Of a stretch of DNA of 42,967 nucleotides, positions 3,435 to 40,376 are shown in pieces. A program made the position numbers and the translations under genes. This DNA is from a virus (taxonomy: Duplodnaviria; Heunggongvirae; Uroviricota; Caudoviricetes): positions 1-42,967 of IMG/VR virus record IMGVR_UViG_2563366803_000007. The stretch is one strand, 5' to 3'. Numbering within the stretch: position 1 is the first letter of the stretch; the number at the start of each line of letters is the position of its first letter. The notes beneath the pieces are model-generated. The model did no database searches. It was given only the letters and a program-made list of their open reading frames with translations, and was not told where the DNA came from.

Positions 3435-3632
3435 TTAATTCTTGCTATTTATTTTTGAATATTCTTTATCATCGTAAAATAGCCCGTCTGCCTTGTTATA
3501 AAACATCCCTGGCTGGCAAAATACACTTTCAGGATATTCGATAAGTTCAGCACCATCATATTCATAACCGCTTTCCGCAATTATGATGTTTTTAACTATT
3601 CCACTTTCAATGACTGCGTAATTACCTGCCAT
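3435..3632 (-). CDS. Small acidic hypothetical protein (65 aa), possible fibre assembly factor
   Basis: ORF start overlaps stop of the upstream fibre gene; function unknown. Confidence 0.4.
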   Translation of the reverse strand: MAGNYAVIESGIVKNIIIAESGYEYDGAELIEYPESVFCQPGMFYNKADGLFYDDKEYSKINSKN

Positions 3633-36456: not shown

Positions 36457-36485
36457 GCCCTCCAGTGCGTGAGGGCGATTTTTTT
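36457..36485 (+). terminator. Rho-independent terminator (tL1-like): GCCCTC-CAGTGCGT-GAGGGC followed by a T-run
   Basis: Hairpin and seven T residues read from sequence, ending 4 nt before the downstream RBS. Confidence 0.55.
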
Positions 36486-36497
36486 GATGGAGGATAT

Positions 36498-37466
36498 ATG
36501 AGTGAAGTAACAGATTTAGTTGTTATTGAAAAAGCAAATGCAATGACTGTATTTCAGTCTGCCGACCAGATTGAAGAAATCCTTCAAAAGGTTGAACGTG
36601 AAGTTATGTCCTTTGTGCCTGATATCACAACGGCAAAGGGCAGAAAGGAGATCGCTTCTCTGGCGTATAAAGTTGCGCAGACGAAAACATATCTCGATGG
36701 TCTTGGCAAAGACCTTGTTGCTGAACTGAAGGAAATTCCAAAGCTAATTGATGCCAACCGCAAGACAGTGCGTGATCGCCTTGATGAGCTGAAAGCCAAG
36801 GCACGCCAGCCTCTTACTGATTATGAGGAAGAACGGGCGCGGATTAAAGCCGAAGAAGAAGCTAAGGCAGCAGCTGAAGCTCTCGCAAAGCAAATTGAGT
36901 CTGACCATGAAATAGCGATTTTGATGGATCGCGAATTTGACCGCCAAAGAGAAGAGGCAAGACTCAAAGCGGAGCAGGAAAAGCGAGAGCATGAAGAACG
37001 CTTAAAAAAAGAAGCTGAAGAGAAAGCCAGAGCTGAAGCCGAAGCAAAGGCAAAAGCCGAAATTGAAGCAGCAGCAAGGCGAGAAGCAGAAGCTAAGGCC
37101 GCAGCGGAACGTGCAGAGCGTGAACGCATTGAAGCCGAGCAACGAGCACAGCGCGAAGCAAAAGAGGCAGCAGAACGAGCTGAAAGAGAAAAGCAGGCGG
37201 CAATTGAAGCAGAACGCCGAAAAGCACAGGAGGAGGCTGAACGAATCCGGCGCGAGGCTGAAGCAAAAGAGCAAGCCAGAATAGCAGAAGAAAAAAGAAT
37301 CAAGGACGAAGAAGAGCGTAGAGCAAAGGATAAAGCTCACCGGAAAGAAGTAAATAACAAAATACTTGCTGACCTTATCAAGGTTGGCGCATCAGAAGAT
37401 GTTGCTAAAAATATCATAACAGCCATCGTAAAAGGCGAAGTATTCGCAACAAAAATAACCTACTAA
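36498..37466 (+). CDS. Hypothetical protein (322 aa) with structured N-terminal domain and about 200-aa Ala/Glu/Lys/Arg-rich coiled-coil (TolA-like) region
   Basis: GGAGGA RBS then ATG at 36498; long EAKAKAEAEA-type repeat tract; track ORF starts at an upstream GTG. Confidence 0.5.
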   Translation: MSEVTDLVVIEKANAMTVFQSADQIEEILQKVEREVMSFVPDITTAKGRKEIASLAYKVAQTKTYLDGLGKDLVAELKEIPKLIDANRKTVRDRLDELKAKARQPLTDYEEERARIKAEEEAKAAAEALAKQIESDHEIAILMDREFDRQREEARLKAEQEKREHEERLKKEAEEKARAEAEAKAKAEIEAAARREAEAKAAAERAERERIEAEQRAQREAKEAAERAEREKQAAIEAERRKAQEEAERIRREAEAKEQARIAEEKRIKDEEERRAKDKAHRKEVNNKILADLIKVGASEDVAKNIITAIVKGEVFATKITY

Positions 37467-37490
37467 TAAAACCAACATAAGGAACCACCC

Positions 37491-37622
37491 ATGATTTACG
37501 CAATCGCGGGAGGCGCTCGCATGGGTGCCTTCCAATTAAATGAATCTTTACTTGAACGAATCACCCGTAAATTACGTGACGGATGGAAAAGAGTTGAGGT
37601 CTTATTATGCGCAATGAAATAG
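37491..37622 (+). CDS. cIII: CIII-like protease inhibitor (43 aa)
   Basis: Shares ESLLERITRKLRDGWKR core with lambda CIII from memory. Confidence 0.8.
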   Translation: MIYAIAGGARMGAFQLNESLLERITRKLRDGWKRVEVLLCAMK

Positions 37623-37759
37623 CCATCAATCACCAGATGCTTCGTGCGGCACAAAACAAAGCAGTAATAGCCCGATTTATTGGTGATTCGAAAATGTGGC
37701 TTGAAGCAAATAAAGCGATGAAATCAGCTATCAACCTTCCGTGGTATCGCAGGAAATGA
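37607..37759 (+). CDS. kil: Kil-like host division inhibitor (50 aa)
   Basis: Overlaps the cIII 3' end as in lambda; FIGD-KM block recalled from lambda Kil. Confidence 0.5.
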   Translation: MRNEIAINHQMLRAAQNKAVIARFIGDSKMWLEANKAMKSAINLPWYRRK

Positions 37760-37914
37760 GTTTTACAGATAACTGGTCAGACGAAGAATTCATTCGTCAG
37801 ATGAAAGAATTAATCGGTAACGAAGGAGATATTCATGTCACTTGCAACCACAGTGAAGGAGAGCAAGTTACAGAGACGCATGTACACGCAGAAAGCTCTC
37901 TGGTATCGCCATAA
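37756..37914 (+). CDS. Small hypothetical protein (52 aa), possibly Arf-like
   Basis: ATGA-coupled to kil; position upstream of erf. Confidence 0.3.
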   Translation: MSFTDNWSDEEFIRQMKELIGNEGDIHVTCNHSEGEQVTETHVHAESSLVSP

Positions 37915-38015
37915 TGGCGACCGCGAAGGAATGCGGGTATGCCTTAATTTGTCCCGAGTCGAAGTATTAAATCAGCGTTATTTCCTTGGGTCGTGTCCAT
38001 TCTGAGAACAATCAT

Positions 38016-38621
38016 ATGAGCAAAGAATTTTACGCAAGACTGGCAGCTATTCAGGAGAATCTGAACGCGCCAAAGAATCAGTACAACTCATTCGGTAAAT
38101 ATAAATACAGAAGCTGCGAAGATATTCTTGAAGGCGTTAAGCCGTTACTGAATGGTCTGTTTTTATCAATCAGCGATGAAGTTGTGTTGATTGGTGATCG
38201 GTATTACGTGAAAGCCACGGCAACTATTACCGATGGCGAAAACAGCCATACAGCAACCGCTCTTGCACGAGAGGAAGAAAGCAAGAAAGGAATGGATTCT
38301 GCACAAGTTACGGGAGCTACAAGCTCTTATGCACGCAAGTATTGCCTCAATGGTTTGTTCGGCATTGATGATGCGAAAGATGCAGATACAGACGAGCATA
38401 AACATCAGCAGAACGCAGCAGCAAAGCAATCAAAACCATCACCTACACCTGAACAGGTTCTAAAAGCATTCACTGACGCAGCAATGCAGAAAAACACCGT
38501 AGAAGAGCTTAAACAGGCGTTCGCCAAAGCGTGGAAGATGCTCGAAGGCACACCTGAGCAGCACAAAGCGCAGGACGTTTACAACATCAGACGAGACGAA
38601 TTAGAAGGAGCTGCTGCTTAA
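38016..38621 (+). CDS. erf: Erf single-strand annealing recombinase (201 aa from internal ATG)
   Basis: MSKEFYARLAAIQENLNAPKNQYNSFGKYKYRSCEDILEGVKP matches P22 Erf N-terminus from memory. Confidence 0.85.
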   Translation: MSKEFYARLAAIQENLNAPKNQYNSFGKYKYRSCEDILEGVKPLLNGLFLSISDEVVLIGDRYYVKATATITDGENSHTATALAREEESKKGMDSAQVTGATSSYARKYCLNGLFGIDDAKDADTDEHKHQQNAAAKQSKPSPTPEQVLKAFTDAAMQKNTVEELKQAFAKAWKMLEGTPEQHKAQDVYNIRRDELEGAAA

Positions 38622-39004
38622 TGGCACATTCGATTACTGTAAGACTAAACAAGCCCGCAAGAGAGTTTCAGGCCGGGGAAAATATCGGATTCAACATCCG
38701 TGCTGGCGTTCAGTATTACGATCGCCAGACAAAAAAGAAAGAATGGACAAACTACAGCGCCGTTGTATTTGCCAAGCCGGGAGCGCAAGCGGATTACTAC
38801 CGTAGTGTTCTTGTTGAAGGTGGCATTGTTGAAATTACCGGAGAAAACATCAGGGTTGATGTTTATCAGGGGCAAAATGGTCAATCAATCACTCTTGAAT
38901 TACTGAATGCAAAGATTGGATTTGCAACTTCAGGAAACAGCCAACAGCAGCAAAGTAGCAATCATCAAAATCATCCTGAATACGACGATTCAATTCCCTT
39001 CTAG
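38621..39004 (+). CDS. Short SSB-like single-stranded DNA-binding protein (127 aa)
   Basis: C-terminal acidic tail DDSIPF (SSB tail is DDDIPF) after a Gln-rich linker; coupled to erf. Confidence 0.55.
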   Translation: MAHSITVRLNKPAREFQAGENIGFNIRAGVQYYDRQTKKKEWTNYSAVVFAKPGAQADYYRSVLVEGGIVEITGENIRVDVYQGQNGQSITLELLNAKIGFATSGNSQQQQSSNHQNHPEYDDSIPF

Positions 39005-39027
39005 ATTAGCAAAATAAGGATTCCATT

Positions 39028-39321
39028 ATGCCAGCGCCTCTGTATGGTGCGGATGACCCGCGCCGCTGTTCCGGCAATTCCGTATCGGAGGTGCTGGATA
39101 AATTCAGAAAAAACTACGATCGAATAATGTCTCTACCGCAGGAAACGAAAGAGGAAAAGGAATTTCGCCACTGCATATGGCTTGCAGAGAAAGAAGAGCG
39201 CGAGCGAATTTACCAGACATCAATCCGACCATTCCGCAAAGCCACATATACCCACTTCCCTGAAATTGACCCGCGCCTGCGTCATTACCGCTCACGCTAT
39301 GGCGCTATCAGTAATGACTGA
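39028..39321 (+). CDS. Hypothetical protein (97 aa), tentatively Abc2-like anti-RecBCD
   Basis: Size and position after erf as in P22; identity not verifiable here. Confidence 0.4.
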   Translation: MPAPLYGADDPRRCSGNSVSEVLDKFRKNYDRIMSLPQETKEEKEFRHCIWLAEKEERERIYQTSIRPFRKATYTHFPEIDPRLRHYRSRYGAISND

Positions 39322-39331
39322 GGAATTAACA

Positions 39332-39622
39332 ATGAAAACAATGAAGCTAAACATCGACCTCGGCAAATACGTTATTACCGGAACCAAACACGATCTGATT
39401 CTTAGCGAAAGAGGAATTATCAAAGAAGGCGAGAATGCAGGGAAAGAAACACTAAGTCGTATCGGTTATTACAGCAAGTTTGAGCATCTGGTTAAAGAGT
39501 TATGCAACCGTGAAATCCTGTTATCTCAGGCGCAGACACTACAGGATATTCAGCAGCATATCGAAACTTTAGGTATGTCACTTAGCATGGCTATTGACCA
39601 GTTCATGGAGAGTAAATCATGA
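39332..39622 (+). CDS. Hypothetical protein (96 aa)
   Basis: GAGGA RBS before ATG at 39332; early-left accessory region. Confidence 0.4.
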
Positions 39623-39783
39623 GAGGACTTGCATACAATCCCGGCATTCTTCCGGCAGAAATGATTATTCGCCAACGCGTAAAGCCAATGCCATCGAGAG
39701 AGGAATTGCTTAAAAGAAATAGTTTCGGTTCTGTTAATGACAACAAATATCTGAATGCGATGTGGCGGAGTGGGAAGAAATGA
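39619..39783 (+). CDS. Small hypothetical protein (54 aa)
   Basis: ATG overlaps upstream stop (ATGA); coupled to the next gene. Confidence 0.3.
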
Positions 39784-40376
39784 AACAAATGACACTAATT
39801 GAGATGGATGGATTTCTGAAAGGTAAATGCATACCACGAGATTTAAAGGTTAACGAAACAAACGCTGAATATCTGGTGCGTAAATTTGCTGAAGCGGAGG
39901 CCAAGATTTCGGCTCTGTCCGAAGACCACCAGAAAGCGATTGAGTCAATTAAGCAGGCTGATGCGGCTGTTAAGTTGGCACACGAGAAGTTTTCGGCGCT
40001 GGCGGCGGAGAATGCGAGGCTTAAGGCCTTCAAAACCGCCGTTTATCAGCAGATGGGCGTCGGATGTGATGCTCCTGAATTCTCCATTACGGTAGGTTTG
40101 AGTAACTTACGTCGTTTTGCTGACACACTCCACGTCATTGAGCGTGAGTTCTTTACCAAAGAGCTACCTGATGAAGAGCACGAAGGCGAAACATTCAATG
40201 AATGTCCACTTAGCTGGGGAATGAGCGTCGAACAGTACGTTTCCGAGTTTCGCAAATGCCTGGCTGAAGTACGTGCGCAGGGCGTGGAGATGTTTGCTGA
40301 GTGTGCATACACACTTGAACATCATGATCACGCAGTAGCCTTCGCCGCTGAGCTTCGCAAAGGAGGCAACCAGTGA
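39780..40376 (+). CDS. Hypothetical protein (198 aa from ATG at 39780)
   Basis: GGAG RBS; ATGA overlap with the preceding small ORF. Confidence 0.4.

Follow-up and report, generated by a model that had tools for sequence, protein, structure and literature searches.

The Rec module of phage P22 (arf-erf-abc1-abc2) has the same operon layout and the same start/stop overlap as the locus described here, except that an SSB stands in our locus where P22 has the unrelated Abc1 (94 aa). Phage HK620 also has an SSB in this slot, between the gene for its annealing protein and abc2; this protein, HkaK or 'SSB-2', was first annotated as abc1 because of its slot and proved to be an SSB (PMC5928155). Its last six residues (NDYPPF, compared with DDSIPF here) are needed for the binding of Sak4 to SSB-coated ssDNA and for the stimulation of annealing and recombineering, in the case of recombineering by ~10-fold (PMC5928155, Hutinet et al. 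2018). The partner in HK620 is the RecA-like Sak4 whereas in our locus it is the Rad52-like Erf. In phage λ, the C-terminal domain of Redβ binds the C-terminus of host SSB, and compatibility between annealing protein and SSB tail governs recombineering (PMC11611040, PMC12054835); for this domain with the host SSB C-terminus or with λ Exo, the literature cites PDB 6M9K and 7UJL.

A 2025 survey in Genome Research (PMC12315714) named HK97 gp40 'SSB-1b' from its AlphaFold 3 fold, assigned canonical SSB-1 to ES18 and Sf6, and defined an 'HK75 functional type' of module that combines an anti-RecBCD protein, an SSB and an annealing protein without a nuclease; the C-terminal tail of HK97 gp40 is not mentioned there. 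Here we analysed a locus of this kind in a window of 42,967 nt, by which we mean the whole stretch of viral DNA under study. Its 127-aa protein is a member of the HK97 gp40/SSB-1b family; family and module type have already been described, and the finding is not new. What is new, if minor, is the conservation of the C-terminal tip across the family and the loss of that tip in the HK97 reference through a one-base frameshift.

Organization of the recombination module

The features discussed below are as follows.

37756–37914, plus strand: small acidic ORF of 52 aa in the arf slot of P22, directly after kil; phrog_2123 'recombinase'
37835–38005, plus strand: second small ORF, 56 aa, ending ...LGSCPF; HK97 gp42-type, phrog_1723
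38016–38621, plus strand: erf, single-strand annealing protein of 201 aa; PF04404, phrog_155, P22 Erf
38442–38618, plus strand: Erf C-terminal domain (~aa 143–201), predicted three-helix bundle
38606–38623, plus strand: coupling junction, with AGGAG at 38606–38610, the erf TAA at 38619–38621 and the ssb ATG at 38621–38623
38621–39004, plus strand: ssb, gene for the 127-aa protein
38621–38935, plus strand: OB-fold domain (aa 1–105) of the SSB-1b protein, HK97 gp40 type; AlphaFold2, Foldseek, hhalign, phrog_44
38936–38983, plus strand: short Q/N/S-rich linker (aa 106–121), predicted to be disordered
38984–39001, plus strand: C-terminal tip DDSIPF, five of six positions as in DDDIPF of E. coli SSB
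39028–39321, plus strand: abc2, anti-RecBCD (RecBCD-hijacking) protein of 97 aa; PF11043, phrog_656, P22 Abc2

The early-left genes of the window run in the order N, cIII, kil, small ORFs, erf, ssb, abc2, which is also the order in HK97 and HK446. We are dealing with a temperate lambdoid phage, and the region, arranged as (arf-slot ORFs)-erf-ssb-abc2, makes up the recombination module of its early-left (pL) operon and matches the HK75 functional type. No plus-strand terminator was found inside the module, promoter-like matches within it amount to a single weak one, fewer than in shuffled sequence, and none of the ORFs overlapping the three genes from erf to abc2, on the same or the opposite strand, matches a PHROG.

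The 52-aa ORF matches phrog_2123 over its full length (E 7e-42), has a counterpart annotated as a gene in phage vB_EcoP-720R6, and is possibly an accessory recombination factor; a short SDEEFI-like motif is all that it has in common with P22 Arf. Overlapping it by 80 nt in another frame, and ending 11 nt before erf, is the 56-aa ORF, with a full-length match to phrog_1723 (E 2e-35) and 71% identity to HK97p33. At the other end of the module, the 97-aa gene previously called 'tentatively Abc2-like' is definitely Abc2, and only the caution of that description falls away: PF11043 aligns over residues 1–97 of 97 (E 9e-64, 212 bits), phrog_656 matches as well, and identity to P22 Abc2 is 94%.

The erf gene had been named correctly. 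Translation from its ATG gives MSKEFYARL, the same N-terminus as in P22 Erf, and the product matches PF04404 (E 2e-44, 151.6 bits against a cut-off of 25) and phrog_155 (E 2e-57). It consists of an N-terminal annealing domain (~aa 1–135), a linker and a C-terminal domain of ~55 aa; identity to P22 Erf is 75% overall, with the N-terminal domain nearly identical and the last ~50 aa a diverged allele. An AlphaFold2 model of the fragment aa 136–201 has a pLDDT of 86 and helices at fragment residues 10–23, 27–41 and 46–65, though it was built on a shallow alignment, the search with full-length Erf having given only sequences >82% identical; a homologue search with the C-terminal domain alone returned only gene fragments. 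The predicted three-helix bundle recalls the small helical C-terminal domain with which λ Redβ docks the SSB tip, but no structural or sequence match between these two domains was detected: a Foldseek search of the PDB with the Erf model gave nothing below E 0.8, and the Redβ domain was absent from the top 50. The Erf domain is swapped as a unit between annealing proteins, and we regard it as a candidate module for interaction with a partner. Because the model has no significant structural match, docking of the SSB tip on this domain is a conjecture.

The erf stop and the ssb start have one base in common (TAATG), with AGGAG 10 nt upstream of the ssb ATG. The earlier note had called the 127-aa gene translationally coupled to erf; the physical overlap is there, and from it we infer the coupling itself. 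All related loci with an intact SSB-1b or Abc1 gene downstream have this 1-nt overlap, whereas canonical SSB-1 genes start directly after the erf stop instead of overlapping it. In two phages, one of Yersinia and one of Vibrio, the annotated coordinates of the SSB-1b-type gene and of the gene upstream abut.

Fold and relationships of the 127-aa protein

Several lines of evidence bear on the earlier description of the 127-aa protein as SSB-like with an SSB C-terminal tip. Prediction with AlphaFold2 and Foldseek gave an SSB/PriB-type OB fold. The model has a pLDDT of 83 overall and >90 for most of aa 1–103, and its strand order, which includes a helix at aa 55–63, is that of an SSB-type OB fold. 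All of the best 50 PDB matches that Foldseek listed were SSB or PriB chains, with a probability of 1.00 and E 2e-5 to 8e-4 but moderate fold scores (TM 0.4–0.55, rmsd 5–6 Å), and those BFVD matches that carry a name were mostly phage SSBs. The protein also matches phrog_44 'SSB' (E 2e-28).

Alignment with E. coli SSB by hhalign runs in register over the whole OB domain, with a probability of 75%, or 79% with a broader profile, and E ~2e-5. It pairs Y32, W42, F50 and Y82 with the ssDNA-stacking residues W40, W54, F60 and W88, in the same register with the broader profile, an equivalence that depends on an alignment of 75–79% probability. In our alignment of the sequences (A1), Y32 and F50 are invariant, at least 90% of sequences have W42, and position 82 is occupied by Y or F. 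The protein resembles E. coli SSB and the canonical phage SSB-1 (PF00436), which likewise have an OB fold, aromatics at the W40/W54/F60/W88 equivalents, a disordered linker and an acidic IPF tip. It differs from E. coli SSB in sequence (~15% identity by Foldseek), in having T43 aligned with His55, a residue important for formation of the E. coli SSB tetramer, and in having a much shorter linker, ~16–20 aa in this protein and in SSB-1b compared with ~55 aa in E. coli.

A Pfam search of the 127-aa protein gave no match, and the protein missed all curated sequence cut-offs for the SSB family (TIGR00621, for example, at 16.4 bits with a cut-off of 54). PF00436 appeared for 3 of 25 homologues, with a best E of 0.095, and for one of 10 distant members, at 14 bits with a cut-off of 26. 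When the family profile was run against 1.84 billion (1.84e9) representatives, it reached only ~200 clusters and did not reach canonical SSBs. HMM searches of PDB sequences were never significant, whether begun with the single protein (E 0.04), the full family alignment (E 0.34) or an OB-only alignment (E 0.23). The best matches in these searches, low-complexity ones aside, were always SSB, and the sub-threshold matches were weak but consistent in being to SSB only (PDB 7d8j, 6cqk and 4dam, TIGR00621, PF00436). With HkaK of HK620 no sequence kinship was found (hhalign probability 0.4%), and the two are alike only in slot and tip motif.

The evidence points to a strongly diverged phage SSB, made up of an OB fold, a short disordered linker and an SSB-Ct tip and predicted to bind ssDNA. 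The earlier description is borne out by the fold, the aromatics aligned by hhalign, the architecture, PHROG 44 and the published SSB-1b label.

The C-terminal tip and the SSB-1b family

The 127-aa protein ends in ...HPEYDDSIPF before a TAG stop at 39002–39004. Whereas pLDDT is <50 over aa 107–127 and the linker is hypervariable in length and sequence among homologues (whole proteins of 123–215 aa), the family keeps an architecture of OB domain, variable Q/P-rich linker and acidic tip ending in (I/P)-P-F. Of the 550 stop-to-stop segments ≥40 aa long that the six frames of the whole window contain, only one has an end of the form acidic-acidic-x-hydrophobic-P-F/Y. A hydrophobic-P-F/Y end is present in 81 of 107 full-length 90%-identity cluster representatives, 79 of the 81 having an acidic residue just before it, and in a second set at least 62 of 115 full-length representatives retain the tip. 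Among 70 near-identical copies, one of the last seven positions varies compared with 7 of 17 linker positions. The DDSIPF tail is not a chance match. In the Yersinia-phage member, the tail (PPMDFDDDIPF) is host-identical over its last 11 residues.

HK97 gp40 is 94% identical to the 127-aa protein (120 of 127 residues, E 2e-81), and HK97 has the same erf-ssb-abc2 order and predicted SSB-like fold. The proteins of mEp043, mEp213 and PhiR12 are 100% identical to ours, and identical or near-identical genes are found in phages mEp043, mEp213, PhiR12, HK446, HK633, Sf101 and CUS-3. In the HK97 reference, one extra A near the 3' end of gp40 changes the tail to ...DDSNPILI, whereas the copy in the window keeps DDSIPF; some prophage copies of SSB-1b are likewise frameshifted or without the tip.

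SSB-1b lies directly after Erf in ~75 IMG/VR loci as well as in Intestinirhabdus and Yersinia, and a Vibrio phage has an SSB-1b-type gene directly after RecT plus exonuclease. Canonical SSB-1 genes fill the same post-erf slot in other phages, and Erf followed by a canonical SSB is found in other Proteobacteria and Firmicutes; our scan of genome contigs for erf yielded 14 loci only, which are anecdotes rather than statistics. Where the Erf N-terminal domain is near-identical, loci with the HK97-type C-terminal domain always have an SSB next, which is SSB-1b in almost all and canonical SSB-1 in locus L083; four loci combine a P22-like Erf N-terminal half with the HK97-type C-terminal domain and SSB-1b. 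In 80 loci picked for the P22-type C-terminal domain, the next gene encodes either Abc1 or else a canonical SSB-1 with a DDEIPF or DDDIPF end. Simple co-variation, in which an SSB would accompany the HK97-type domain and Abc1 the P22-type, is rejected because the P22-type domain occurs with canonical SSB. Physical linkage of neighbouring DNA can account for the association that remains between allele and gene, in a set of loci that is highly redundant.

Discussion

By analogy with HK620 SSB and Sak4, the experimental precedent, the most likely role of the 127-aa protein is that of a recombination SSB dedicated to the module, which would coat phage ssDNA and recruit Erf and host SSB partners through its tip. 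We derive every step of the following mechanism from homology and precedents. Abc2 would make host RecBCD into a resection enzyme that has ceased to load RecA. The phage SSB would be synthesized together with Erf, given the overlap of their genes, and would coat the ssDNA exposed by resection. The acidic IPF tip may then recruit Erf onto the ssDNA, or let Erf displace the SSB, and annealing would proceed; the contact with Erf would probably be made through its C-terminal three-helix domain. Being nearly identical to that of the host, the tip could also bring host SSB-interacting proteins to phage DNA. We consider it probable that this explanation holds as a whole, that is, a lambdoid Rec module in which SSB-1b is a diverged SSB that works by the proposed mechanism. 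That P22 recombines without a phage SSB, which is to that extent dispensable, counts against it, as do the tip loss or frameshift in the HK97 reference and some prophage copies, the missed sequence cut-offs, the moderate fold scores, the lack of a structural match for the Erf C-terminal domain and the absence of clean co-variation.

Two roles had been offered in the earlier note. The first, a dedicated recombination SSB, is the better supported, by the position in a recombination module, by immediate adjacency to erf (in Vibrio phages, to RecT plus an exonuclease) and by the HK620 precedent (PMC5928155). The second is a decoy or competitor, whose host-like SSB-Ct would titrate or redirect ExoI, RecQ, RecO, RecJ, PriA, Ung and others, so that phage recombination intermediates are protected or host repair is disturbed rather than Erf being helped directly. 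A tip that agrees with that of the host at five of six positions, or over 11 residues in the Yersinia-phage member, and a very short linker of ~16–20 aa speak in favour of such a role. A peptide decoy has no need of an OB domain, however, yet this is the best-conserved part of the family, ssDNA-stacking aromatic positions included; moreover, the SSB-1b gene always abuts that of an annealing protein or its exonuclease, and the HK620 tip acts positively on the phage recombinase. With a conserved DNA-binding domain that would be superfluous, the decoy is disfavoured: we give the titration of host proteins, and equally its supposed consequence for intermediates or repair, a low probability, and a pure decoy role is unlikely.

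The protein might instead be a general replication SSB, for theta or rolling-circle replication, brought next to erf through module shuffling only. SSBs are core replication proteins, phage SSBs are often found in replication modules (PMC2896510), and the replication defects of staphylococcal phage ssb mutants resemble those of sak/sak4 mutants (quoted in PMC5928155). Here, though, the gene belongs to the pL recombination module and does not lie beside the O/P replication genes, and its physical overlap with an annealing-protein or exonuclease gene extends across very different phages. We therefore think a general replication SSB improbable, with the added consideration that recombination and late replication are coupled in these phages, which makes this explanation overlap with the one we prefer.

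There is also a small chance that the tip serves mainly something other than Erf, as a phage-own 'SSB interactome hub' on phage ssDNA that pulls partners from host SSB or masks ssDNA from defence systems sensing phage SSBs or ssDNA. If that is true, the Erf three-helix module would be an unrecognised class of SSB-Ct reader, common to unrelated annealing-protein N-terminal domains. Finally, because the gene fills the exact abc1 slot, from erf to abc2, and overlaps the erf stop by 1 nt just as abc1 does in P22, it could be read as a functional analogue of Abc1, an accessory anti-RecBCD factor and not an SSB, as HkaK originally was for the same reason, but we find this very hard to credit given that BLASTP returned no alignment with Abc1 at E ≤ 100, hhalign gave a probability of 0.3%, the fold is SSB-like and HkaK, which fills that slot in HK620, turned out to be an SSB.

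The value of identifying the 127-aa protein as a phage SSB is mostly one of annotation. The SSB-1b family is still recorded as 'hypothetical protein' at NCBI and has no Pfam model, while the cluster closest to the 127-aa protein alone holds >1,600 member sequences; these proteins can be annotated with confidence as phage SSBs with an SSB-Ct tip. The frameshifted tail of HK97 gp40 calls for caution when the HK97 sequence is taken as the family prototype. For recombineering, Erf would come with a ready-made cognate partner in SSB-1b, and matched pairs of this sort have been shown to make annealing proteins more portable (PMC12054835); the conserved tip may offer a simple handle on the access of Erf-type annealing proteins to SSB-coated DNA.

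Organization of the erf, SSB-1b and abc2 genes

Three tightly packed genes occupy 38016-39321 on the + strand:

38016-38621, +, erf, 201 aa (Pfam ERF, E 2e-44; PHROG 155)
38621-39004, +, gene of a 127-aa protein of the HK97 gp40-type family SSB-1b
39028-39321, +, abc2, 97 aa (full-length PF11043 match, E 9e-64; 94% identity to P22 Abc2)

These matches bear out the erf assignment of the earlier note and turn its tentative Abc2-like gene into a certain Abc2; the DDSIPF tail it described downstream of erf is also present, the 127-aa protein ending in ...HPEYDDSIPF. The erf stop codon and the next ATG have one base in common (TAATG), with AGGAG 10 nt 5' of that ATG. N, an ORF of unknown function, a 333-aa coiled-coil protein, cIII, kil and two small overlapping ORFs lie on the 5' side, and DUF5405 and DUF2737 genes on the 3' side. 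Because of these neighbours, and because 37400-39900 yielded no + strand terminator and a single weak promoter-like match, below the number in shuffled sequence, the genes constitute the recombination module of a lambdoid early-left operon.

The two small ORFs fill the arf slot between kil and erf and share 80 nt that are read in different frames:

37756-37914, +, full-length phrog_2123 match (E 7e-42), labeled 'recombinase'
37835-38005, +, full-length phrog_1723 match (E 2e-35), labeled 'recombinase'; 71% identity to HK97p33; C-terminus ...LGSCPF

The 333-aa protein (36465-37466, +, between N and cIII) has a long E/A/K/R-rich coiled-coil region, no Pfam match, and PHROG matches of unknown function only (phrog_1376, phrog_21365). 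At the homologous position phage HF4s carries a gene annotated as a phi80 Agt-like 'Gam antitoxin', and a Yersinia phage has a 346-aa gene annotated TolA-like directly 5' of cIII. The genome as a whole is a mosaic, since at 85-92% identity positions 1-25000 match structural genes of SEN34-like and vB_EcoM-type myoviruses (tail sheath, baseplate J), the early region is that of a lambdoid phage, like HK97, HK446 and P22, and the phage collection contains no record with 80% or more coverage of the first 25 kb.

The 127-aa protein is a predicted SSB

Judged by sequence, the 127-aa protein is an orphan among curated models, with no Pfam match and a TIGR00621 score of 16 bits, below the cut-off of 54. 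An OB-domain profile run against 1.84 billion representatives found only ~200 clusters and did not recover canonical SSBs (PF00436). The weak signals all agree on a putative SSB, namely PHROG 44 'SSB' (E 2e-28), sub-threshold matches of SSB-1b to SSB chains 7d8j, 6cqk and 4dam, and an hhalign alignment with E. coli SSB in register over aa 3-93 (75-79% probability). The AlphaFold2 model has pLDDT >90 over most of aa 1-103, the strand-helix order of SSB and a disordered segment at aa 107-127; the best 50 PDB matches listed by Foldseek are all SSB or PriB chains, and the BFVD matches with a name are mostly phage SSBs. Profile alignment pairs Y32, W42, F50 and Y82 with the ssDNA-stacking W40, W54, F60 and W88 of E. 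coli SSB, and all four are conserved aromatics family-wide. Family members (123-215 aa) have the SSB architecture of an OB domain, a hypervariable Q/P-rich linker, among the shortest in the window copy, and an acidic IPF tip. Fold, structural matches, hhalign register, PHROG 44 and family layout thus support the earlier SSB-like reading, and structure prediction returns the OB fold whose absence would have counted against that reading.

The C-terminal tip is under selection

Several lines of evidence indicate that the tip is selected. An acidic-acidic-x-hydrophobic-P-F/Y ending occurs in 1 of 550 stop-to-stop segments of the window (>=40 aa, six frames); the only other segment ending in PF is the 37835-38005 ORF. 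Across SSB-1b, 81 of 107 full-length 90%-identity cluster representatives end in hydrophobic-P-F/Y, 79 of the 81 with an acidic residue just upstream, as do at least 62 of 115 full-length representatives at 50% identity. Among 70 near-identical copies, variation touches only one of the final 7 positions versus 7 of 17 in the linker, and a Yersinia-phage member ends in PPMDFDDDIPF, the enterobacterial host tail. A metagenomic sub-lineage with long Q/P-rich linkers (P0091, P0095, P0097, P0103, P0106-P0108, P0117, P0118) lacks the acidic IPF tip and ends in …NF(N/Q/S)(Q/H)PQR, which hints at another partner or another host tail.

The 127-aa protein matches proteins of phages mEp043, mEp213 and PhiR12 at 100% identity and HK97 gp40 at 94%. 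To HK97 gp40, a 2025 survey in Genome Research covering 325 lambdoid phages gave the name 'SSB-1b' on the basis of its AlphaFold 3 fold (PMC12315714). The same survey defines an 'HK75 functional type' (27 phages) with anti-RecBCD, SSB and annealing protein and no nuclease, and makes no mention of the SSB-1b tip (PMC12315714). The HK97 reference (NC_002167, about 3590-3611, corresponding to 38990-39004 here) has one additional A (TCCAATCCC versus TCC-ATCCC in HK446 and TCA-ATTCCC in the window), which changes DDSIPF* to DDSNPILI*, so the published prototype is without the conserved tip. This A, found only in the two HK97 genome copies among the loci examined, may reflect either an error in sequencing or a genuine lesion. 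Since family and module type are published, the survey is silent on the tip and its prototype is frameshifted, the conserved tip is a small addition to published knowledge and not a new kind of element. Degraded copies also occur: in HF4s (L003, 3161-3556) and in one IMG/VR prophage a frameshift splits ssb-1b into pieces of 94 and 36 aa.

A recurrent SSB slot and a shuffled Erf domain

Of 80 IMG/VR loci whose Erf N-terminal domain is near-identical, about 75 have erf, then SSB-1b with the same 1-nt overlap, then abc2. SSB-1b also lies behind the Erf gene in a Yersinia phage and behind RecT plus exonuclease genes in a Vibrio phage, in both with abutting coordinates, and in other Proteobacteria and in Firmicutes MAGs the gene behind erf encodes a canonical SSB with an acidic xPF tip. 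In HK620 the slot holds HkaK, an SSB unrelated to SSB-1b, whereas in P22 it holds Abc1, unrelated to the 127-aa protein. Because SSB-1b, canonical SSBs and HkaK all occur there, SSBs of any lineage recur in the slot that follows the annealing-protein gene.

Partner binding by an SSB tail normally needs a free terminal Phe. In ~20 IMG/VR loci (L145, L148, L151, L171, L173 and others) a canonical SSB-1 encoded behind the annealing-protein gene carries a 15-aa extension (APVTLPFPRHAIHAI) beyond DFDDDIPF, leaving IPF internal. An Erf homologue of an Anaeroplasmataceae MAG (L096, 2489-3007), without the helical C-terminal domain or an adjoining SSB gene, itself ends in an SSB-like acidic xPF tip, …EDEQDDDCPF. 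In locus L070 erf is shortened at aa 150 and directly followed by a 322-aa ORF, by appearance a putative IS transposase.

The window's Erf is 75% identical to that of P22, with an almost identical N-terminal annealing domain and a diverged allele over the last ~50 residues. The mosaic joint follows a PEQVLKAF motif, and the last ~50 residues go together with the downstream gene. We considered the C-terminal allele as a code for the downstream partner and rejected this. In IMG/VR loci L100-L179 (e.g. L110, L134, L171), the P22-type ~55-aa C-terminus (…DKKKLIERYQHDWQLL…) is found with Abc1 or with canonical SSB, and on two N-terminal domains, that of a 205-aa Erf and that of a 235-aa annealing protein (MNLDQLDEPFAAEDIEWRIQ…), joined at E-Q-(V/I)-L-K-(A/D)-F. 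The domain is therefore a shuffled module with no clean partner code. A docking site on Erf for the SSB tip is conjectural, because this domain, a predicted three-helix bundle, matches nothing in the PDB significantly and its best 50 matches do not include the Redβ C-terminal domain.

Proposed role in recombination

In the best-supported model, every step of which we infer for the 127-aa protein, Abc2 would reprogram RecBCD, as known for P22 (PMC9836394), SSB-1b would coat the resulting ssDNA, and its tip would bring in Erf or allow Erf takeover of the ssDNA; the tip may also bring in host SSB partners. In HK620, the last six SSB residues (NDYPPF) are needed for Sak4 binding of SSB-coated ssDNA and for ~10-fold stimulation of recombineering (PMC5928155). 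Redβ requires the host SSB tail, which its C-terminal domain binds (PMC11611040), and matched annealing-protein/SSB pairs improve recombineering (PMC12054835). These precedents are experimental.

A general replication SSB, which partly overlaps this model, is disfavoured by gene position. A pure decoy for host SSB partners, the earlier note's alternative, is disfavoured because conservation within the protein is highest in the OB domain, predicted to bind DNA, and against an Abc1 analogue, no similarity to Abc1 was detected. The dedicated recombination SSB also proposed in that note is the best-supported model, given the predicted fold, the slot and the HK620 precedent; the note's observation is confirmed and its interpretation supported. 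The element is an ordinary module, described already, and its value lies in annotation and in offering Erf and SSB as a matched pair for tests in biochemistry or recombineering.
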